A stretch of 6,623 nt of DNA, taken from NCBI GenBank assembly GCA_045539715.1, contig JAZQFV010000034.1, forward strand, positions 1 to 6,623, given 5' to 3'. Both the position numbers and the translations under genes were made by a program. Shown piece by piece: positions 1-6,623 of the stretch. Under the pieces are notes generated by a model that did not search any database, was not told the origin of the DNA, and saw nothing but the letters and a program-made list of their open reading frames with translations. Source of the DNA: Ruminococcus sp. GTDB taxonomy: Bacteria > Bacillota > Clostridia > Oscillospirales > Ruminococcaceae. Position 1 is the first letter of the stretch. Each line of letters opens with the position of its first letter.

Positions 1-9
1 AAATAAGGC

Positions 10-38
10 TTGACATTTTGAGGTAAGTCTGCTATATT
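10..38 (+). promoter_or_regulatory. sigma-70-type promoter for the tRNA-Ala gene
   Basis: TTGACA (10..15), a 17-nt spacer, then TATATT (33..38) with a TGc extended -10 at 30..32. It lies about 30 nt upstream of the tRNA 5' end. Confidence 0.6.
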
Positions 39-68
39 AATCAAGTCGGCAGCGAGCCGATACAATAT

Positions 69-144
<76 letters not shown>

Positions 145-187
145 AAAGCCTTGGTTTCTTCGGAAATCAAGGCTTTTTCTTGTTTTT
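145..187 (+). terminator. rho-independent terminator just after the tRNA, supplied by the element
   Basis: Stem AAAGCCTTGGTTTC / GAAATCAAGGCTTT (one G:T wobble) with loop TTCG, followed by TTCTTGTTTTT. Confidence 0.7.
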
Positions 188-240
188 ATAGCTGTTTTTG
201 TGTGATTTAGTTTGCTTTTCTCCAAGAGATAAGTGCTGAC

Positions 241-254
241 CTGTGCGCTTGATT
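241..254. repeat. left-arm copy of a 14-bp inverted repeat; candidate integrase arm-type site
   Basis: CTGTGCGCTTGATT is the exact reverse complement of AATCAAGCGCACAG at 4901..4914. The sub-motif AAATCAAG also occurs at 164..171 and 272..279, and inverted at 248..255. Confidence 0.5.
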
Positions 255-290
255 TTAGACTAAAAAATATGAAATCAAGAGGACAGAATT

Positions 291-1226
291 ATGGCTAAAA
301 TTAGACTTGTAGTGAGCGCAACTATCGAGGAAACCTTTGCCGACTTCATCGTTTCCCGAAAAACCAAAGGACTTGCAGAAAAGACCCTGCAAAGCTATCA
401 ATCACAGTTTCAAGCCGTGGCGCGTCACATTGATGTAAAGATGGACATTGCCACGCTCCAAAAGGCTGATTTGGATAAAATGATTATCAGTATGCGGGGC
501 GCGTCCCTCTCTCCCAATAGTATCAACAGCTACACACGCACTCTCAAATCCTTTTTCTCTTGGTGTAATGAGCAAGGGATCACACGCCTAAATATTCCGC
601 TCTATAAGGCGGAGGAAACTGTAAAAGAAACCTATTCAGATTTAGAACTGTCTGCATTGCTAAAAAAACCCGACATTCGCAAAGCAACCTTTGCAGAATA
701 TCGGGATTGGGTTATTATCAACTTTTTATTGAACTGCGGCAGCCGTGCCGCGACAATTAGAGCTATTCAAATTCGTGATGTGGATTTAGATGCGGGAATG
801 GTGTTCTACCGACACACGAAGAACAGAAAGGCGCAAGTGATTCCCCTTTGTAGTGCCATGGTAGCCATTCTGCGGGAGTATTTACGGCATAGAGGCGGGG
901 AGGCGGCGGATTACCTCTTTTGCACTGAAACAGGCTCACAACTCACGGAAAACGGTTTGCGGCAATCTATTGCAAGGTATAACACGCGGCGCGGCGTACG
1001 AAAGACGAGTATCCATCTGTTTCGACATACATTTGCGCGAAAGTATTTGATTGATTGCGGCGGCGATGCGTTTACTCTCCAAAAGCTATTGGGACACAGC
1101 ACGCTTGCCATGACAAAACATTATTGTGCGATCTTCGATGCTGACTTGACGAAGAATTATGATAATTTCTCGCCGCTTGCACAAATGAAATCCAGTAGAG
1201 AAAAAATCGCCATGCGTGGTAGATAG
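291..1226 (+). CDS. tyrosine recombinase / phage-type integrase (311 aa)
   Basis: Intact ORF with SD-like AGAGGA 7 nt upstream. The N-terminal region resembles a SAM-like core-binding domain. Catalytic signature by eye: GSRAAT (Arg), HLFRHTFA (His-x-x-Arg), LLGHSTLAMTKHY (His and Tyr nucleophile). It sits next to attL. The stop is TAG, followed one codon later by TAA. Confidence 0.9.
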   Translation: MAKIRLVVSATIEETFADFIVSRKTKGLAEKTLQSYQSQFQAVARHIDVKMDIATLQKADLDKMIISMRGASLSPNSINSYTRTLKSFFSWCNEQGITRLNIPLYKAEETVKETYSDLELSALLKKPDIRKATFAEYRDWVIINFLLNCGSRAATIRAIQIRDVDLDAGMVFYRHTKNRKAQVIPLCSAMVAILREYLRHRGGEAADYLFCTETGSQLTENGLRQSIARYNTRRGVRKTSIHLFRHTFARKYLIDCGGDAFTLQKLLGHSTLAMTKHYCAIFDADLTKNYDNFSPLAQMKSSREKIAMRGR

Positions 1227-1249
1227 GAATAACGGGCTTGACGATAATG

Positions 1250-1282
1250 AAGGGGTAACAGCGTCAATCGCTGTTACCCCTT
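1250..1282. terminator. bidirectional stem-loop between the convergent integrase and GIY-YIG genes
   Basis: GGGGTAACAGCG (1252..1263) pairs with CGCTGTTACCCC (1269..1280) around loop TCAAT. TTTCC follows on the plus strand and TTCATTAT on the minus strand. The GIY-YIG stop codon lies in the loop. Confidence 0.6.
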
Positions 1283-1695
1283 TCCAATAGTTCAGATAAT
1301 GTGATTGTATGTGCGGCGGGATTGACGGTAAATTTCCGCCAGTTTGCCGCCGTGGGTATCTAATAGTTGAGCGGCGGGAGATGCTTGCGGATTAGCTCTC
1401 CCTCTTTCTCGCCTATTTCGTTTTCTGTAGTTTGGGCATTAGGTGTGGCGTAGTACATAACCGTAAAGCGTATGGTGTGACCGTGGCGCGTGGCTTCCGC
1501 CAGTATCTTATATTTATGTTCTTTTGGAGCGGCAATCTGTGTGTAATGCTACGCCATGCGCTATAGCATATTGAGGCTCTTGCCTATATAGACGATCTTT
1601 CCGTCCAACAGGATAGCATAAATGCCAGCGTGTTCAAATTGCTGCTCTAACCCTTTGCTTTTCAAAGAATGGTATATCCGTTGCTCAAAATTCAA
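1264..1695 (-). CDS. GIY-YIG nuclease-domain protein, 143 codons, three in-frame TAG codons read as sense
   Basis: TTG start at 1695, 6 nt after AGGAGG (complement of 1702..1707). Translation (X = TAG): MNFEQRIYHSLKSKGLEQQFEHAGIYAILLDGKIVYIGKSLNML-X-RMA-X-HYTQIAAPKEHKYKILAEATRHGHTIRFTVMYYATPNAQTTENEIGEKEGELIRKHLPPLNY-X-IPTAANWRKFTVNPAAHTITLSELLERGNSD. GIY and YIG precede the first TAG. The expected Arg/His, Glu and Asn motifs follow it in frame. TAGs are at 1561..1563, 1549..1551 and 1360..1362; the stop is TGA at 1264..1266. The supplied ORF 1561..1746 is only the N-terminal fragment. Confidence 0.7.
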
Positions 1696-1870
1696 AATAC
1701 CCCTCCTTGATCGGTTTGCATTTAGGGTATTCACAGTTAGCATCATAGTATAGAAACGCCCATAGGTTATACGATGCAGCTAACAGGTTACTATAACTGC
1801 TTGCATTTGTATCTGTAAAAAGCTAACATAAAATGTCATTTATGCAGCTTGTCATTTCATTCTCTGTCAT
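1685..1870 (-). CDS. hypothetical 61-aa protein with one in-frame TAG read as sense
   Basis: ATG at 1870, 5 nt after AAGGAG (complement of 1876..1881), directly after the upstream gene's TGA. Translation: MTENEMTSCINDILC-X-LFTDTNASSYSNLLAASYNLWAFLYYDANCEYPKCKPIKEGYFEF. TAG at 1823..1825; stop TGA at 1685..1687, overlapping the GIY-YIG TTG start by 11 nt. No recognisable motif. Confidence 0.5.
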
Positions 1871-1882
1871 AATTACTCCTTG

Positions 1883-2380
1883 TCAAAATCGAAACATTGG
1901 AGCGGGAGAAGCTTGCTTCTCACCGCCAGTATTTATTGTATTTATAGTATTTATATTTATTTCTATATCCTCCGCCGTGTTATCTTTTACGGTTTGCACT
2001 ATACCAACAGCGTCCGCCGTAAAGTCGTATGCGTCTACCGTGTTGTCTGATGATGTGTGCGTGTCGCGTTGTGGCGTTTCATAGAAATCATAAGTATTGC
2101 TGTCTTTACGCTATACAAGATAGCCTTTATCAATCAGCCGAACAAATTGGTCGCGGTATGTAGAAGCGGGCATACCTACCGCTTGCCGTATTGCGGCGGG
2201 AGAGAGCGCAAGCACAAATCCGTTTGCATTTGAGGCAAAGTACAAGTAAAGTAAGAGAGCGTGCGCCCCAAGATCGCGTGCCGCTGCTTGCCAGTTGCTA
2301 TTCTTGATGCCGAGGAAGTCAGACGCGGCACGCTCTCTGTGAATAGCAACCATTCGTTGATTAGGTACTGTATTTGGCAT
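1883..2380 (-). CDS. winged-helix replication-initiator / replisome-organizer-like protein, 165 codons, one in-frame TAG read as sense
   Basis: ATG at 2380, 7 nt after GGAGA. Translation: MPNTVPNQRMVAIHRERAASDFLGIKNSNWQAAARDLGAHALLLYLYFASNANGFVLALSPAAIRQAVGMPASTYRDQFVRLIDKGYLV-X-RKDSNTYDFYETPQRDTHTSSDNTVDAYDFTADAVGIVQTVKDNTAEDIEININTINTINTGGEKQASPAPMFRF. TAG at 2111..2113; 75 further sense codons follow before TGA at 1883..1885. The LYLY...LS...IGMP.STY...L..KGYLV pattern resembles N-terminal winged-helix domains of phage/plasmid replication proteins. That resemblance is from memory and was not searched. Confidence 0.6.
1929..1961. repeat. three tandem 9-bp repeats plus a partial unit inside the rep-like gene (iteron-like)
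   Basis: AGTATTTAT / TGTATTTAT / AGTATTTAT / ATTTAT on the plus strand. They encode INT-INT-INT in the minus-strand frame and form a local A/T-rich island within the gene. Confidence 0.6.
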
Positions 2381-2405
2381 AATAATATCTCCTGTTCTAC
2401 TGGAA

Positions 2406-2432
2406 CAGCAGGGAGGGAAAACCCTCCCGCTG
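2406..2432 (-). other. intercistronic GC-rich stem-loop between the 77-aa gene and the rep-like gene
   Basis: CAGCAGGGAGGG-AAAA-CCCTCCCGCTG with one bulged base. On the minus strand only TTCC follows, so it is not a canonical terminator. It may be a processing, attenuation or stability element. Confidence 0.4.
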
Positions 2433-2445
2433 TCGGTCATTAGTC

Positions 2446-2679
2446 TTATCGGTCAAGGCTTTTGAGTAAATCCCGCAATTCCTCTAATGCCTCTGCTTCA
2501 AGACGAATACGAACACGAGATAAGACTTCCTCTGTGATCTCGTTCTTTAGCTTCTCTATTTCGGCGCGGCGGATGAACTGATCCTTCATCAATTCTCTTG
2601 TGAAGTAGAGATTTAGGTATGCCTAAGCCTTGTCGTCAAGACCTTCAATAAAGTGATTGAAAAAGCTTTTGTTATCCAT
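2446..2679 (-). CDS. hypothetical 77-aa coiled-coil-like protein with one in-frame TAG read as sense
   Basis: ATG at 2679, 6 nt after GGAGG (complement of 2686..2690). Translation: MDNKSFFNHFIEGLDDKA-X-AYLNLYFTRELMKDQFIRRAEIEKLKNEITEEVLSRVRIRLEAEALEELRDLLKSLDR. TAG at 2623..2625; stop TAA at 2446..2448. It is absent from the ORF track because ATG-to-TAG spans only 18 codons. Confidence 0.6.
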
Positions 2680-2735
2680 GCTTTTCCTCCTTTAATTATT
2701 AAAAATTAGTGAGATTTCCCTCACTTTCTATAATT

Positions 2736-2764
2736 ATTATAACATATTTTTTTATAAAAATCAA
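2736..2764 (-). promoter_or_regulatory. promoter of the minus-strand TAG-containing operon
   Basis: On the minus strand: TTGATT (2759..2764), a 17-nt spacer, then TATAAT (2736..2741) preceded by a TGt extended -10. A 6-bp inverted repeat AGTGAG/CTCACT (2708..2725) lies between the -10 and the RBS and could be an operator. Confidence 0.6.
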
Positions 2765-2883
2765 AATGATGGAGATACAGGGCTTGCGGCAATGAATGAT
2801 AAAGGGGCGGGGTATATTATGGGAAAAACAACCTTTTACAGTGTGATAACGGGTTGATGTGGGCTGTTTCGTATCGAAATGCA

Positions 2884-2910
2884 TTGAAAATTTGCCGTAA
2901 TCGTTATAAT
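2884..2910 (+). promoter_or_regulatory. possible plus-strand promoter with a short spacer
   Basis: TTGAAA (2884..2889) and TATAAT (2905..2910) are separated by only 15 nt. If active, the transcript would cross the phased repeats and reach the 3054..3099 hairpin. Confidence 0.3.
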
Positions 2911-2917
2911 CGCAAGA

Positions 2918-2950
2918 AAAACAGCGTGAAACAGAGCAAAACAGCTAAAA
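2918..2950. repeat. three 10-bp-phased AAACAG repeats (iteron-like)
   Basis: AAACAGCGTG / AAACAGAGCA / AAACAGCTAA, with ACAG at 2921, 2931 and 2941, exactly one helical turn apart. They sit in the divergent intergenic region about 85 bp from the (TA)9 tract. Confidence 0.5.
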
Positions 2951-3025
2951 ACTTGTCGTTATGCTGTGAATTTCCGTGGACTTTTGGATGTTTTGCTGAT
3001 TCTCAAAGAAAAATGCAAAAAACGC

Positions 3026-3050
3026 TTGAATATATATATATATATATAAT
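3026..3050 (+). promoter_or_regulatory. candidate promoter of the plus-strand operon; its spacer is a TA microsatellite
   Basis: TTGAAT (3026..3031) and TATAAT (3045..3050) are separated by 13 nt, all of it TA repeat. The spacing is sub-optimal as it stands. Confidence 0.45.
3031..3048. repeat. (TA)9 dinucleotide repeat
   Basis: TATATATATATATATATA read directly from the sequence. Confidence 0.95.
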
Positions 3051-3053
3051 TGG

Positions 3054-3099
3054 ATGTGCGAAAGTTCGGTTTTCCGAAGTCGCACATTTTGCTTTTTTG
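3054..3099 (+). terminator. leader hairpin plus T-tract (attenuator-like) directly upstream of the 3114 RBS
   Basis: ATGTGCG (3054..3060) pairs with CGCACAT (3081..3087). TTCGG (3065..3069) pairs with CCGAA (3074..3078) around loop TTTT. TTTGCTTTTTTG follows, and AGGAGGG starts at 3101. Confidence 0.45.
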
Positions 3100-3113
3100 T
3101 AGGAGGGAACACA

Positions 3114-3329
3114 ATGCGTATTATTTTGGACACCGATAAAAAGACCATTACTGTACCTTGGAACTATCAAGCGAAGCTGAACGAAACGAACAAGCTGATT
3201 GCCGAATATAGTGACGGCAAGAAAGAAGCAAAGACCTTTACTGGATACATTGACGAGATTTGGAATTACTGCATTGAGCATTCCGATCAGTGCGTTGTAA
3301 CAGGCAAGAAGCCTGTGAGCAAGAAGTGA
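3114..3329 (+). CDS. hypothetical 71-aa protein
   Basis: ATG at 3114, 6 nt after AGGAGGG (3101..3107). The track's start at 3054 lies inside the leader hairpin and has no RBS. Protein: MRIILDTDKKTITVPWNYQAKLNETNKLIAEYSDGKKEAKTFTGYIDEIWNYCIEHSDQCVVTGKKPVSKK. Stop is TGA. No motif recognised. Confidence 0.6.
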   Translation: MRIILDTDKKTITVPWNYQAKLNETNKLIAEYSDGKKEAKTFTGYIDEIWNYCIEHSDQCVVTGKKPVSKK

Positions 3330-3330
3330 T

Positions 3331-3525
3331 ATGGGCGCGAAGCATATTAGCCCCACGGAAATTGTGGAAATGCAGAGGCTTTATCGGATACACGGAACAT
3401 ACGCGGCGGTAGCAAGGGAAATGGGGCGCAGTGTGTCCTCTGTTTCCAAGTATGTCAAAATGGATAATGTTCCCCGCAATATTCGTATCGCAGTTGAAAA
3501 TTTGACTAAAGAAAGGGAGAGCTAA
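3331..3525 (+). CDS. small helix-turn-helix DNA-binding protein (64 aa); possible regulator or recombination directionality factor
   Basis: The start is coupled to the upstream stop (TGAtATG). HTH-like segment: GTYAAVAREMGRSVSSVSKYV. Stop is TAA. The assigned role is inference only. Confidence 0.55.
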   Translation: MGAKHISPTEIVEMQRLYRIHGTYAAVAREMGRSVSSVSKYVKMDNVPRNIRIAVENLTKERES

Positions 3526-3526
3526 G

Positions 3527-4021
3527 ATGGAGATAACATTAAAAGGTCTTATGTTTTCTTCGACTATTAAAGACGATAGGGTTGAGTATGGCCTTTTTAA
3601 GAAAAAGATCCCCTATAATAAAATTATAGATATGAGCTTTCGCTTTGCGACTGAAGATGGTTTTGGACATATAAGGCTAGTTCTCGATGAGCCAGGGGAT
3701 ACTGAGAATAGCAATGCGGAAGTTACTATAGCGTATGATAATAAACAGCAACAGCAGGCATCAGAAGCGAGAAAATACATCTTTGATCATCTTACGGTTA
3801 GTGAGGAAAAAAAGCAGCAGATTGAAAAGCGGTACCGTAGTACTCCTATAAGATATGGTAGTTCGACACCAAATTATCCGCCCTCCGTTAAGAATAAAGA
3901 TAAAAATGGAGATGCAAGCGTAGTTGGTAGAGCTGTTATAGGAGGCATTGTTGCAGGACCCGCTGGAGCTGTGGTTGGTGCATTGAGTGCCATCGATAAG
4001 AATAACAAAAAACAAAAGTAG
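3527..4021 (+). CDS. membrane protein with a C-terminal glycine-zipper helix (164 aa), function unknown
   Basis: ATG is coupled to the upstream TAA and preceded by GGGAG. The soluble N-terminal ~90 aa is followed by a polar K/Q-rich linker, then VVGRAVIGGIVAGPAGAVVGALSAI (repeated GxxxG) and a basic tail KNNKKQK. The gene is visibly more A/T-rich than its neighbours. Stop is TAG, followed at once by a terminator hairpin. Confidence 0.7.
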   Translation: MEITLKGLMFSSTIKDDRVEYGLFKKKIPYNKIIDMSFRFATEDGFGHIRLVLDEPGDTENSNAEVTIAYDNKQQQQASEARKYIFDHLTVSEEKKQQIEKRYRSTPIRYGSSTPNYPPSVKNKDKNGDASVVGRAVIGGIVAGPAGAVVGALSAIDKNNKKQK

Positions 4022-4037
4022 CCAAATTTATATGTTC

Positions 4038-4075
4038 AAAGGAGCGGGATTTTACCTGCTCCTTTCTTTGTTGTT
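4038..4075 (+). terminator. rho-independent terminator of the 3114..4021 operon
   Basis: AAAGGAGCGGG (4038..4048) pairs with CCTGCTCCTTT (4055..4065), with one G:T, around loop ATTTTA. CTTTGTTGTT follows. Confidence 0.7.
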
Positions 4076-4204
4076 CGCAAGAGTACACCTTTACAAACAC
4101 CGAAAATCACCCTGTTATTCGTGTTCGTAATACATAAAAATAAATTTACAAACATATTCGTAAAATACTTGATATTTACGAACACTTATGGTAGAATACG
4201 AACA
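4072..4204. promoter_or_regulatory. array of at least 7 copies of a 9-bp motif (consensus TTACGAACA) upstream of the serine recombinase gene; res-like site and/or operator
   Basis: Direct copies: TTACAAACA 4091..4099, TTACAAACA 4146..4154, TTACGAACA 4176..4184, ATACGAACA 4196..4204. Inverted copies: TGTTCGCAA 4072..4080, TGTTCGTAA 4122..4130, TATTCGTAA 4155..4163. Copies 4146..4154 and 4155..4163 abut to form an imperfect 18-bp palindrome. Copies at 4176 and 4196 are 20 bp apart and bracket the -10. Confidence 0.6.
4169..4197 (+). promoter_or_regulatory. promoter of the serine recombinase gene
   Basis: TTGATA (4169..4174), a 17-nt spacer, then TAGAAT (4192..4197) with a TGg extended -10. RBS GGGAGG at 4217..4222 lies 8 nt before the ATG. 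Confidence 0.6.
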
Positions 4205-4230
4205 GATAGAACAACAGGGAGGAAACGCAA

Positions 4231-4839
4231 ATGGATAGCCGCACTTATTACTACGCAAGAGTATCAAGTAAAGAACAGAATTTAGATAGACAGATCGCTG
4301 CTTTCAAGGCTCTTGGAGCAACTGACCGTGAAATCATTACCGACAAGGAGAGCGGCAAAGATTTAGAACGGACAGGGTATCAAGCCCTCAAAAACGCAAT
4401 GCTCCGCCGTGGTGATACGCTGATTGTCAAATCTCTTGATCGCCTCAGCCGAAACAAGACAGACATTCACAACGAACTCCGCTATTTCAAGGAGAACGGC
4501 ATTCGTCTCAAGGTGATTGATCTTCCCACTACCATGATGGACTTGCCTCAAGGTCAAGAATGGGTTTTCGACATGGTAAACAATATCCTAATTGAAGTCT
4601 TGGGAACTATCGCAGAACAGGAACGAGAAACCATCCGAAAGCGGCAGGCGGAGGGCATCGAAGCGGCGAAAGCCAGCGGTAAGAAGTTGGGTAGACCTGC
4701 TTTGACATTCCCCGCCAACTGGGGCGCTGTTTATGCCTCTTGGAAAGCAGGAGAGATTACCGCAAAGACCGCTATGGAAATGACCGACACGAAACGCACA
4801 AGCTTCTATAAACTGGTCGGCATGATGGAAGAGGAGTAA
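4231..4839 (+). CDS. small serine recombinase of the resolvase/invertase family (202 aa)
   Basis: N-terminal catalytic motif YYARVSSKEQNLDRQ (Ser nucleophile), then LIVKSLDRLSR, the E-helix region EQERETIRKRQAEGI, GRP, and a C-terminal HTH-like segment. Stop is TAA. Confidence 0.88.
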   Translation: MDSRTYYYARVSSKEQNLDRQIAAFKALGATDREIITDKESGKDLERTGYQALKNAMLRRGDTLIVKSLDRLSRNKTDIHNELRYFKENGIRLKVIDLPTTMMDLPQGQEWVFDMVNNILIEVLGTIAEQERETIRKRQAEGIEAAKASGKKLGRPALTFPANWGAVYASWKAGEITAKTAMEMTDTKRTSFYKLVGMMEEE

Positions 4840-4847
4840 ACCAAAAA

Positions 4848-4881
4848 TGTCGTGGTGAGGCTTGAAATGCCTCCCACGACA
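4848..4881. terminator. strong stem-loop after the recombinase gene; the run of T is on the minus-strand side
   Basis: TGTCGTGGTGAGGC (4848..4861) pairs with GCCTCCCACGACA (4869..4881), with one bulge, around loop TTGAAAT. ATATATAAT follows on the plus strand and TTTTTGG on the minus strand. Confidence 0.55.
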
Positions 4882-4900
4882 ATATATAATGCAGATAGTC

Positions 4901-4914
4901 AATCAAGCGCACAG
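4901..4914. repeat. right-arm copy of the 14-bp inverted repeat; candidate integrase arm-type site
   Basis: AATCAAGCGCACAG is the exact reverse complement of 241..254. Both copies lie about 100-110 bp from their att core. Confidence 0.5.
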
Positions 4915-5023
4915 ACACAGCGCAAATCACTGTGTTAGCTGTACCACAAGCGAAAAGAGCGTTGAAAACCAAGCGTTTTTGGCGGTGAGCCGCCCTCTAC
5001 ACCTTGACTGCCATCGGCAGTCC

Positions 5024-5068
5024 ATGGCATTCAAGAGGTCAGCGGTTCGATCCCGCTTATCTCCACCA
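5024..5068 (+). repeat. attR core (non-functional duplicate of the tRNA 3' half)
   Basis: Identical (45/45) to 100..144. No matching tRNA 5' half lies upstream. A perfect 7-bp hairpin GACTGCC-ATC-GGCAGTC (5006..5022) abuts it on the element side. Confidence 0.88.
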
Positions 5069-5073
5069 TCGAA

Positions 5074-5114
5074 AAACACCGTGAAACCAAGGGTTTCACG
5101 GTGTTTTCTTTTTG
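5074..5114 (+). terminator. probable original tRNA-Ala terminator, displaced by the insertion
   Basis: AAACACCGTGAAACC (5074..5088) pairs perfectly with GGTTTCACGGTGTTT (5092..5106). TCTTTTTGT follows. It begins 6 nt after the CCA of attR. Confidence 0.75.
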
Positions 5115-5408
5115 TAGGACGAAAACCACGTGCTATGCGCGTGGTTCCAAATAGGCTTTACCTTTGAACGGAAAACGATTTAAGGCAGAAGCTACGGTAG
5201 AAAAGTGTTATAGAAGTATTCACTTATGAGGGGGATCTGTGGATTACAGAAGGCTCGATGAGCCGTAAAAGGCTGCACCCCACCGCCAATAAAATTGGCA
5301 GCGGGGCACAGATGCAATAGAAATGAAATTCAGGAGCCTTAAGGCTCTGCCAGTAAGAGACCCTTACAGGGGCAGAGCATGCCACCCGTTTTACGGGTGG
5401 TCATGACT

Positions 5409-6224
5409 TTATTGCCAATTTCGTTTCAAAACTTCACTTTTAAGGTAGAGCGTATTCTTTCCAGATGACTTAATTGGATGAAGTTTTCCTGTTTTTGTCA
5501 AATAGTCAATATTCTGTCTGCTGCAGCCCAGGATTTCTGCGGCTTCGGCCACATTCACAACCCGGTGCACAACGAAATTCTGAAAGTCAGAAACCGTCAG
5601 AGGAACTTTTGTGCCGGTACGATACAAGGTGGCCGCACTAACGCTAATATTGACATCCCATTCGATACCGTGTCCTCCCGGTTGAAGATTTATGGCATAA
5701 AAGAAATCTTCATTTTTGAACAGCACTTGAAAAGAAGGCGCATTTTTATAGCGATCCCAAATGCTGCATTTCTTTACGCTTCCATCTCGGAAGAAAACTA
5801 AAAGCGCAAAATCATTTAACGGAATCACATCTTCGATTAGTCTGTCAAAGCGTCGGCGAATTTTCTCCGGGAGCTGTGATTCTTCAATGGGTACAAGATA
5901 GTAGTCATCTTGCGCACATCGTCCCATGGACAGCATCAGCAAGTCAAACTCATCGTATTCCTTCAGATTGTTGTCTTTCAGAACTTGACCAAGATTCTGG
6001 CGATCCGTCGGAACAATACGCTGCTGCACCCATATCTTACTCCAATAGGAATTGATCGACGTTTCACCCTTCTTAATAAAAGACGAAAGGAGCAAAGGTG
6101 TTTCCCATGGATCAGCATTTTCAGGAAGCTCGATATAGAATCTTTTTTCTACTTCGTAATATAGCAAGTAAGCAAGATCAATCTGATCAATAACCGATTC
6201 ATCTCGAATTGCAAAGATCTTCAT
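5409..6224 (-). CDS. 271-aa protein with a C-terminal excisionase/MerR-type HTH and an unrecognised N-terminal region
   Basis: I prefer the ATG at 6224, 7 nt after AGGTGG, to the track's GTG at 6230. The C-terminal segment VNVAEAAEILGCSRQNIDYLTKTGKLHPIKSSGKNTLYLKSEVLKR looks like an HTH_17-type domain. It overlaps the upstream kinase-like gene by 26 nt. Stop is TAA. Confidence 0.65.
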   Translation of the reverse strand: MKIFAIRDESVIDQIDLAYLLYYEVEKRFYIELPENADPWETPLLLSSFIKKGETSINSYWSKIWVQQRIVPTDRQNLGQVLKDNNLKEYDEFDLLMLSMGRCAQDDYYLVPIEESQLPEKIRRRFDRLIEDVIPLNDFALLVFFRDGSVKKCSIWDRYKNAPSFQVLFKNEDFFYAINLQPGGHGIEWDVNISVSAATLYRTGTKVPLTVSDFQNFVVHRVVNVAEAAEILGCSRQNIDYLTKTGKLHPIKSSGKNTLYLKSEVLKRNWQ

Positions 6225-6623
6225 ATGCACACCACCTTTTCCAGATCATCTCCCAGATCTTATTCTGTAGGACCTGAGAGATGATGCCATCCAAACCGTG
6301 CATCAAAACTGCCCTATCCGTTTCTTTCAGAACATTCAACTTAGGAAGCTTGTCTTTTGGAATCAATTTCAGGTTTTCCCACGTAGAGCCGGAGCCGATG
6401 TAATTGTTTACACGCTTGTCGGCCAGAACATCGTATTTCTCTGCGGCAGCATCATCCATGCAGTTAAACAGCAGAGAAAGGCCATGATCGAAGAGCGGTG
6501 CTAAGTGGATTGTCTTTTTGCGGCTATTGCGCAGCACCTCGATATTGGCACCGTGACGATCACGATTCAGAATCAGGAAATCTACTACCAGCATCTGGTA
6601 GATGTATTCTTCCCAACCATTGC
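6199..6623 (-). CDS. HipA-like Ser/Thr kinase, C-terminal part (5' end beyond the window)
   Basis: The frame stays open to the window edge (..NGWEEYIYQMLVVDF..). LILNRDRHGANIEVL matches the HipA-type catalytic loop D-x-H-x-x-N, and LAPLFDHGLSL matches the downstream Mg-binding Asp segment. Stop is TGA at 6199..6201. Confidence 0.6.
   Translation of the reverse strand, partial: NGWEEYIYQMLVVDFLILNRDRHGANIEVLRNSRKKTIHLAPLFDHGLSLLFNCMDDAAAEKYDVLADKRVNNYIGSGSTWENLKLIPKDKLPKLNVLKETDRAVLMHGLDGIISQVLQNKIWEMIWKRWCAYEDLCNSR

Follow-up and report, generated by a model that had tools for sequence, protein, structure and literature searches.

Can a stop codon be read as sense in a single operon carried by a standard-code host? 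This question is raised by a contig of Ruminococcus sp. (GenBank assembly GCA_045539715.1, contig JAZQFV010000034.1, positions 1 to 6,623; this whole stretch of 6,623 nt is called the window), in which four tightly packed minus-strand genes, here genes 1 to 4 with products P1 to P4, are interrupted by TAG and by no other stop codon. An earlier note on this DNA had proposed that TAG is translated in these genes, most plausibly as glutamine, as in genetic code 15. Our analysis indicates that TAG is almost certainly a glutamine codon in this operon. Moreover, two aspects that the earlier note had not seen emerged: the carrier is a small integrative element of 4,924 bp and not a phage, and the recoding is limited to the one operon.

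In-frame TAG codons and their reading as glutamine

The four genes could be translated as originally described (Table 1), and a script reproduced the in-frame TAGs at 2623..2625, 2111..2113, 1823..1825, 1561..1563, 1549..1551 and 1360..1362, which correspond to codon 19 of 77 in gene 1, 90 of 165 in gene 2, 16 of 61 in gene 3, and 45, 49 and 112 of 143 in gene 4. These are followed by 58, 75, 45 and 3 + 62 + 31 codons, and the genes end in TAA, TGA, TGA and TGA, respectively. Ribosome-binding sites and starts are readable in the sequence for all four genes (GGAGG-6 nt-ATG, AGGAGA-7 nt-ATG, AAGGAG-5 nt-ATG and AAGGAGG-6 nt-TTG), and gene 4 overlaps gene 3 by 11 nt. Across the 446 codons of the operon, the in-frame stops comprise six TAG, no TAA and no TGA, whereas reading these genes in their two remaining frames gives 12 TAG, 22 TAA and 24 TGA in 892 codons. 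The six-TAG pattern exceeds chance: given the off-frame TAG share of 0.21, the probability that six of six stops are TAG is about 8e-5, and the off-frame counts give a probability of about 5e-11 for the lack of any TAA or TGA over 446 non-coding codons.

Relatives were gathered by searching a collection of 5.8 billion proteins with P4, written with X at its TAGs (208 relatives), and by a scan of species-representative genomes, which found 137 relatives and from which 80 loci were obtained. The top relative of P4 is 97% identical and 191 aa long, exactly the length of the frame bounded by TAA/TGA, which implies that the gene caller behind it treated TAG as a sense codon. This copy (locus L001), from a different sample, keeps all six TAGs in its DNA. 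A relative of 62% identity, recovered from six samples (L002-L007), has TAGs at partly different places compared with the window: glutamine stands at the sites of the window TAG in P2 and in the RMA-x-H motif, TAG stands at the site of the window glutamine in FEQR, and LN-x-Q-IP contains TAG in both. In gene 3, L002 carries a TAG at an apparently equivalent place to that of the window.

Homologous frames between TAA/TGA stops were then aligned, using unique sequences from the 80 loci, from fetched contigs and from the window. Homologues align across the TAGs and not merely up to the first of them, glutamine codons (CAG or CAA, together CAR) face the TAGs in homologue columns, and close relatives swap TAG and CAR. 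Specifically, position 112 of the GIY-YIG protein encoded by gene 4 is occupied by TAG in 14, CAG in 30, CAA in 37 and His in one of 83 unique genes, and position 49 by TAG in 43, CAG in 21, CAA in 4 and other residues in 15. The invariant glutamine at position 8 of P2 (62 unique genes) is written as TAG 16 times, CAG 27 times and CAA 18 times and as nothing else, and positions 31, 66, 78 and 104 of P2 are glutamine-dominated columns that also hold TAG. At the window TAG of P1, the column contains TAG 6, CAA 7, CAG 1, Asp 6 and Asn 1. When 190 TAG cells were scored with BLOSUM62 against the rest of their columns, glutamine gave the best fit (2.22), followed by Glu (1.34) and Lys (0.88), and the scores for Tyr, Trp and Leu were negative. 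A reading as pyrrolysine was rejected, as the TAG columns are glutamine columns.

The regions after the TAGs behave as coding sequence. In the GIY-YIG gene, the GIY (residues 24-26) and YIG (36-38) motifs precede the first TAG, and R46, H50, E98 and N110 follow it; G24, Y26, Y36, I37, G38, R46, H50, E98 and N110 are invariant in an alignment of 38 homologous sequences, so that the invariant set includes catalytic residues encoded after the first TAG (E98 and N110). Matches to protein profiles also extend across the TAGs, both for GIY-YIG (Pfam, residues 24-104; PHROG 1111, 16-112) and for P2 (PHROG 270, 18-144), with the GIY-YIG match reaching 21.6 bits for PF01541, just below the 22.6-bit cut-off, and 1e-7 for PHROG 1111. 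Downstream of the first TAG of the GIY-YIG gene, the proportion of non-synonymous differences (pN, 0.23-0.34) lies below that of synonymous differences (pS, 0.50-0.89); in the low-complexity tail of P2 after its TAG, pN is also below pS, but more weakly. Overall, the comparative tests proposed in the earlier note came out in favour of reading TAG as glutamine.

These data also bear on the explanation by decay, according to which the four genes are pseudogenes, or a dead remnant of a recoded prophage of the Topaz type (see below), and the TAGs are nonsense mutations from a C-to-T bias. CAG becomes TAG by one transition, and three gene families are common to the element and to tailed phages of ~22-27 kb. 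However, lineages of only ~50% identity carry TAGs at identical conserved columns, neither in-frame TAA/TGA nor frameshifts occur in 83 + 62 + 21 unique homologous genes, pN stays below pS after the TAGs, the repeats bounding the element are perfect, the ~97% identical copy from the other sample retains its six TAGs, and the gene order and four families (P1, Q72, HTH64 and the serine recombinase, introduced below) differ from those of the phages. Decay is thus the least credible of the explanations considered, and the conserved columns together with the constraint after the TAGs led us to discard both pseudogenes and split genes. The homologues are too divergent to be assembly copies of one locus.

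A preference in codon context was also observed in the operon genes family-wide (L001-L087 and the window), namely an avoidance of CTAG: C precedes one of 195 in-frame TAGs as compared with 18% of CAG/CAA.

The carrier element, its family and the split of codes

The element extends over 4,924 bp, counted from repeat start to repeat start, between two identical copies of the 3' part of a host tRNA-Ala gene (Table 1). No Pfam or PHROG match to head, tail, terminase or lysis families was found among its proteins, which together with the tRNA-derived repeats identifies it as a tRNA-gene integrative element and not a prophage. Its integrase adjoins the host tRNA and has no in-frame TAG, a feature of Topaz-type phages, and ends in TAG-GAA-TAA, that is, with TAG as a stop. 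Family profile searches of the window proteins gave no match to relaxases, and no PADLOC model matched any element protein. The window integrase has no exact match on record; the element DNA matched no GenBank phage and, among PLSDB plasmids, matched in the recombinase gene only; and the GIY-YIG protein gave no tblastn match to GenBank phages. The possibility that the right-hand repeat is a second tRNA was discarded, as no anticodon stem can form with the preceding 5 nt and neither ARAGORN nor Rfam finds anything there.

The family was found in Oscillospiraceae, Acutalibacteraceae, Lachnospiraceae and other Clostridia from human and animal guts, and cultured carriers include Hominicoprocola fusiformis CLA-AA-H188, Pseudoflavonifractor phocaeensis An901, Pseudoflavonifractor sp. 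HCP28S3_F10 and Oscillibacter valericigenes An860. The gene order is conserved in the family: a small serine recombinase (SerRec), cargo, the helix-turn-helix (HTH) protein HTH64 and the conserved protein Q72 share a strand, and the opposite strand encodes P1, P2, (P3) and GIY-YIG, followed by a convergent integrase next to the tRNA. The tRNA-repeat architecture (45-52 nt) is present in 25 related loci, the bounding repeats being 3' ends of tRNA-Pro, Val, Lys, Ala, Arg or Thr. Most members range from 4,355 to ~8,900 bp. They cluster tightly at 4.4-5.2 kb, and the few larger ones have extra cargo, for example WYL and SprT-like proteins. No homologues of the terminase, portal, head or tail proteins of related phages were detected in 87 loci with 10 kb on each side. 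A variant element in contig k141_908955 (L111, 1-3400) is without GIY-YIG and without in-frame TAG and has a different integrase of 403 aa. Similarly, a 36,869 bp contig with a P2 homologue, considered as the published 36.9 kb Topaz prophage, was found to be a TAG-free small-element variant lacking GIY-YIG.

Hosts of the family use the standard code, as 410 uninterrupted flanking open reading frames of at least 250 aa end in TAA in 250, TGA in 126 and TAG in 34 cases (8%); the window itself provides just two host genes. Within the operon, at least one in-frame TAG is present in 70 of 80 genome loci and none in the other 10, so that members of the family differ in code, a plasticity also reported for phages. 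Family-wide, the operon genes contain 197 internal TAG against 1,006 CAG/CAA, distributed over GIY-YIG (138 TAG, 27% of glutamine-type codons, in 83 unique homologues), P2 (39, 7%) and P1 (16, 15%). The counts reach three TAGs per gene in the window and five across one operon in relatives. In contrast, the integrase (41 genes), SerRec (33), Q72 (21) and HTH64 (26) have 9 TAG against 800 CAR (Fisher p = 1.6e-35 for the split between operon genes and these four), and all nine lie within the last dozen codons and are therefore stops. Recoding is thus confined to one operon, and the integrase, serine recombinase and the two small regulator-like genes Q72 and HTH64 are compatible with the standard code.

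This split bears on whether the host itself decodes TAG, through an amber suppressor, perhaps inducible, or through host-wide reassignment with no phage needed. In favour of such decoding, TAG is the rarest host stop, and no suppressor tRNA was found in the elements or in related recoded phages; against it, 34 of the 410 long host genes end in TAG and none contains it in frame, the 87 related loci with ~1 Mb of flanking sequence yielded 69 tRNAs, none with a CUA anticodon, and several members terminate standard-code genes of the element itself with TAG. We therefore regard host decoding as quite improbable.

One member of the family (L066, 5779-8954) has a TAG-free operon, and its Q72, HTH64 and SerRec genes all end in TAG, which is rarely so in recoded members. 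This pattern hints that, after recoding of the operon, TAG comes to be avoided as a stop.

Probable decoding in trans, related phages and the proposed use of the module

How could the TAGs be decoded? No suppressor tRNA was found in the window, where ARAGORN, and Rfam at E up to 1, report the host tRNA-Ala and nothing beyond it. With no TAG decoder in cis, decoding must come in trans, which we consider very probable. The operon probably remains silent unless another factor in the cell changes the code, and a phage is, by a small margin over even, the expected supplier of the decoder.

Candidates for such a phage share genes with the element. IMG/VR and JGI contigs of ~22-27 kb encode homologues of the integrase (38-56% identical), GIY-YIG (37-42%) and P2 (33%), and PHROG searches identify these contigs as tailed phages with large (TerL) and small (TerS) terminase subunits, portal, and major head and tail proteins. 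In these related phages, NUMOD4-HNH and GIY-YIG genes (PHROG 1111, as in the element) lie directly upstream of TerS/TerL. Some of the phages use the standard code (L093/L095 and L090/L096) and others are TAG-recoded (L092, L098/L201, L099, L100, L102 and L104); "recoded" flags on contigs of at least 50% GC were treated as artefacts of long antisense reading frames and excluded. In L092, TerL contains 10 TAG and the tail fibre gene 12, the range for tail fibre genes in related phages being 12-19. L098 and L201 (contig Ga0247610_10001771) share a perfect terminal overlap of 4,292 bp, which shows a circular or concatemeric TAG-recoded phage genome of 21,774 bp, and no tRNA was found in all but ~535 bp of it. 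A complete tRNA-Thr(CGU) with a consensus promoter (TTGACA-17 nt-TATACT) is located at 7028-7132 of L092, between the tail genes and the integrase; it may be an attachment-site tRNA or a phage-borne tRNA and is not a suppressor.

That no suppressor tRNA was found in the sequence available for these recoded phages agrees with the literature, in which a detectable suppressor tRNA is present in only 40-52% of code-15 phages (10.1101/2021.08.26.457843; PMC11210395). As neither the elements nor the related recoded phages have a recognisable suppressor tRNA, the switch may not be tRNA-based and may involve, for example, inhibition of release factor 1 or editing of a tRNA anticodon. The means of TAG decoding in these Clostridia thereby becomes a sharper question.

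The phages and the element resemble known code-15 systems in several respects. Topaz phages are 22 +/- 3 kb, TAG-recoded, and located beside tRNA-Thr in Oscillospiraceae, with a TAG-free integrase (10.1101/2021.08.26.457843). Like Topaz and Garnet, the element family reads TAG as glutamine, sits next to tRNAs in standard-code hosts, places a TAG-free integrase beside recoded genes, and includes related lineages that differ in code; unlike Topaz, the element is 4.9 kb, is without virion or lysis genes and recodes only a four-gene operon. The phages that share the integrase, P2 and GIY-YIG with the element resemble Topaz in size and recoding, a likeness by description and not a clade assignment. 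In crAss-like phages, for which proteomic proof of TAG as glutamine is reported (PMC9523058), and in Lak and other code-15 phages with suppressor tRNA(CUA), TAG is likewise read as glutamine and the recoded genes are late genes. These are large lytic phages of Bacteroidota, ~40-52% of which have a detectable suppressor tRNA, whereas the element resides in a Clostridia host and none was found in it.

The numbers of TAGs also speak to a simpler explanation, in which the stops are leaky and a near-cognate tRNA-Gln reads TAG occasionally, keeping operon expression very low with no dedicated factor. C and A after a stop are weak termination contexts in E. coli, and 79% of the in-frame TAGs of the operon genes (L001-L087 and the window) have one of these two bases directly 3'; moreover, no decoder was found in the elements, the 87 loci or the window. 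However, this bias is confounded by conserved next residues, since it arises in part because a conserved His or Ile follows. With up to three TAGs per gene in the window and five per operon in relatives, readthrough yields would multiply to near zero, and the 10 TAGs of the phage terminase and 12-19 of the tail fibre would be impossible by leakage. Leaky stops consequently rank slightly below even host decoding in our estimation.

A similar module was identified outside integrative elements. The plasmid pRGF00006 (PLSDB HG796773.1, locus L212) is a circular contig of 5,228 bp from a rat-caecum metamobilome (PMC3913684), in which the standard code is used by the Rep_3 initiator and by the resolvase, the latter sharing 59% identity with that of the window. 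Positions 553-1501 hold a P2-like HTH_36 gene with six TAG, including one at the invariant PNQ glutamine, together with the gene of a NUMOD4-HNH nuclease, which has five. Judged from its sequence, this plasmid with a standard-code initiator likewise keeps an HTH and nuclease module in code 15. It thus resembles the element in its recoded P2-like HTH gene and recoded nuclease gene, in its resolvase and in having no tRNA of its own, and differs from it in being a Rep_3 plasmid without integrase and in carrying NUMOD4-HNH in place of GIY-YIG. The HG796773.1 record annotates just fragments of the recoded genes and does not annotate the recoding.

Taken as a whole, the explanation that we find best, and moderately probable, is a trans-decoded, code-gated operon put to satellite-like use alongside a code-15 phage. 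In the resting host, the operon proteins would be cut short at codons 19, 90, 16 and 45, a translational lock that would hold whatever the transcription. The lock would open when a TAG-decoding activity appears in the cell, its most likely source being a co-resident or infecting code-15 phage of the ~22-27 kb group resembling the Topaz clade. The HTH and nuclease module would then be made together with the TAG-recoded late genes of the phage (terminase, portal and tail) and could be used for replication or packaging of the element, satellite-style. A role in replication or packaging is favoured because the phage homologues of the nuclease adjoin terminase genes; satellite-type exploitation in particular, as opposed to another use of the module, is nevertheless offered tentatively.

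Small phage satellites include the P4-like, PICI and PLE types, with minimal forms (PICMI/VEIME) of ~5-6 kb. Like them, the element is small, integrates at a tRNA, has an integrase and divergent operons, is without virion genes and shares genes akin to those of its candidate helper; unlike them, it gave no hits for primase/helicase, AlpA, small terminase or capsid remodelling. Like phage terminase-side GIY-YIG/HNH nucleases and homing endonucleases, the element's GIY-YIG protein has the full catalytic set (the GIY and YIG motifs with Arg, His, Glu and Asn), although, unlike the terminase-side nucleases, it is encoded on a non-phage element without a terminase. In the literature searched, genetic-code gating is not reported for any satellite.

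The module is possibly defensive instead. As an anti-phage tripwire, it would be defence cargo: a code-15 phage switches TAG, the nuclease is made, phage or host DNA is destroyed, and the infection aborts. Defence genes are often carried by mobile elements, and the nuclease gene is the most heavily recoded of the operon, with a TAG share nearly four times that of P2. Its commonest TAG falls within the catalytic R-x-x-Q-H motif (43 of 83 homologues), as expected if leakage must be avoided, and the plasmid swaps GIY-YIG for NUMOD4-HNH yet stays recoded. Against a tripwire, the element proteins are without PADLOC match, the module is a conserved core of the element and not variable cargo, and GIY-YIG/HNH homologues are ordinary in related phages beside terminase genes, for which packaging or homing fits better. 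A defensive trigger is therefore a serious competitor although an unlikely one, and far less unlikely than leakage or host decoding.

Several observations also weigh against the code-gated, satellite-like explanation preferred here. We infer the translation of TAG, strongly supported as it is, from sequence comparison. A phage-supplied suppressor is an assumption, as the decoder was found nowhere searched: besides the 69 flanking tRNAs of the 87 loci, all without a CUA anticodon, no tRNA(CUA) was found across 212 loci including near-complete recoded phage genomes, IMG/VR and metagenome loci, and the plasmid. Pfam, PHROG and NCBIfam searches of the element gave no hits for a small terminase, capsid-size factor, primase-replicase or AlpA. 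The plasmid replicates with its own standard-code Rep_3, and P2 therefore need not be a replication initiator. Only two of six IMG/VR hits resemble the small element, which is almost absent from that collection, and no terminal overlaps indicative of circular or excised forms were found among the 4.6-5.0 kb contigs with homologues. Finally, the P2-like and GIY-YIG genes of a distant relative (L110, 1642-2843) lie behind a gene resembling NikA, a relaxosome accessory protein, which hints at conjugative mobilisation of some family members.

In its general form, our proposal is that non-phage elements (4-9 kb tRNA islands and at least one Rep_3 plasmid) keep an HTH and nuclease module in code 15 with the genetic code as a signal, so that it would be translated upon the arrival of a code-switching phage or other TAG decoding in Oscillospiraceae, for riding along or for killing the infection; we put this forward as plausible but short of an even prospect. 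Neither code 15 nor the presence of recoded prophages in hosts with the standard code is new, and it has been suggested that recoding lets a phage sense others using the same code (Borges et al., 10.1101/2021.08.26.457843); what would be new is that the sensor is a non-phage element. Descriptions of stop-codon recoding have so far concerned phage genomes, in which a role in the timing of late or lytic genes has been proposed, whereas here it would be used by non-phage elements unable to decode it, and our full-text literature searches returned no report of a recoded small integrative element, satellite or plasmid. If true, an alternative code could give mobile elements a channel of their own, in which one genome holds the lock and another the key. 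This idea of a code lock is directly testable because cultured isolates carry the element. The findings also matter for annotation, as there are >1,200 unnamed P2 relatives and such genes appear fragmented under the standard code, the plasmid record above being an example.

Further features of the element and its surroundings

Table 1. Annotated features of the window (window coordinates unless another locus is named)
Feature	Position	Strand	Basis
Host tRNA-Ala(GGC), integration target	69..144	+	ARAGORN; Rfam tRNA 61.4 bits
attL, 45 nt direct repeat equal to the tRNA 3' part	100..144	+	100% identical to 5024-5068
Tyrosine integrase, 311 aa, no internal TAG	291..1226	+	Pfam Phage_integrase 3e-27
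Perfect 14 nt hairpin where the integrase and GIY-YIG genes converge	1250..1282	.	Inverted repeat
Gene 4 (P4), GIY-YIG nuclease, 143 aa, TAG codons 45/49/112	1264..1695	-	Pfam, PHROG, homologue alignment
Gene 3 (P3), 61 aa, no assigned function, TAG codon 16	1685..1870	-	Weakly conserved, 5 tblastn hits
Gene 2 (P2), 165 aa HTH protein, replication-initiator-like, TAG codon 90	1883..2380	-	PHROG 270, 2.4e-6
Gene 1 (P1), 77 aa, no assigned function, TAG codon 19	2446..2679	-	Translation, homologues
Putative leader hairpin upstream of recoded operon	2725..2708	-	Function inferred
Strong promoter-like site, TTGATT-17 nt-TATAAT with upstream TG	2764..2736	-	Faces recoded operon; function inferred
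Q72, conserved 71 aa protein, standard code, first gene of divergent operon	3114..3329	+	
HTH64, 64 aa HTH protein, putative regulator, standard code	3331..3525	+	Pfam HTH_38 1.7e-5, below family cut-off
Cargo protein, 164 aa, no assigned function, variable region, TAG as stop	3527..4021	+	
Small serine recombinase (resolvase/invertase type), standard code	4231..4839	+	Pfam Resolvase 5e-31; PHROG 125, 5e-49
attR, second copy of the 45 nt tRNA 3' segment	5024..5068	+	Repeat search
Recurrences of operon promoter/leader in other contigs	L088 945-994, 3487-3525, 4453-4483, 8937-8995; L097 548-579, 5141-5185; L099 6113-6158; L090 1481-1515		

The hairpin between the convergent integrase and GIY-YIG genes is probably a bidirectional terminator. 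In the window, the stretch from the promoter-like sequence to the first gene of the recoded operon contains a short hairpin with a T-run after it. The promoter is also present in L001, L002, L012, L022 and L047, and a similar one occurs in the phage contigs L090, L097 and L099. Promoter and leader together (TTGATTTTT...TGnTATAAT...TATAGAAAGTGAG) recur at 80-94% identity upstream of genes in phage-like contigs (Table 1).

The P2 family comprises 1,209 database hits without a Pfam domain, in clusters of up to 1,167 member sequences, and an AlphaFold model of P2 built from a 38-sequence alignment was unusable (mean predicted local distance difference test score 40).

A 434 bp intergenic region separates the recoded operon from the divergent plus-strand operon and contains a (TA)9 microsatellite at 3036-3055. 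In the divergent operon, a terminator-like hairpin lies at 4038-4065, just 3' of the TAG stop of the cargo gene, and a different gene occupies the cargo position in L001. The idea of an invertible segment, based on the serine invertase and an imperfect 37 nt inverted repeat (185-221/2915-2951), was discarded as four relatives have no equivalent repeat.

Beyond the element, two host genes flanking attR (window 5409-6594, minus strand) match the PADLOC candidate defence system PDC-M03, a 131 aa protein matching PDC-M03A at 1.5e-11 and a 273 aa protein with DUF2442 and HTH_17 matching PDC-M03B at 5e-5.

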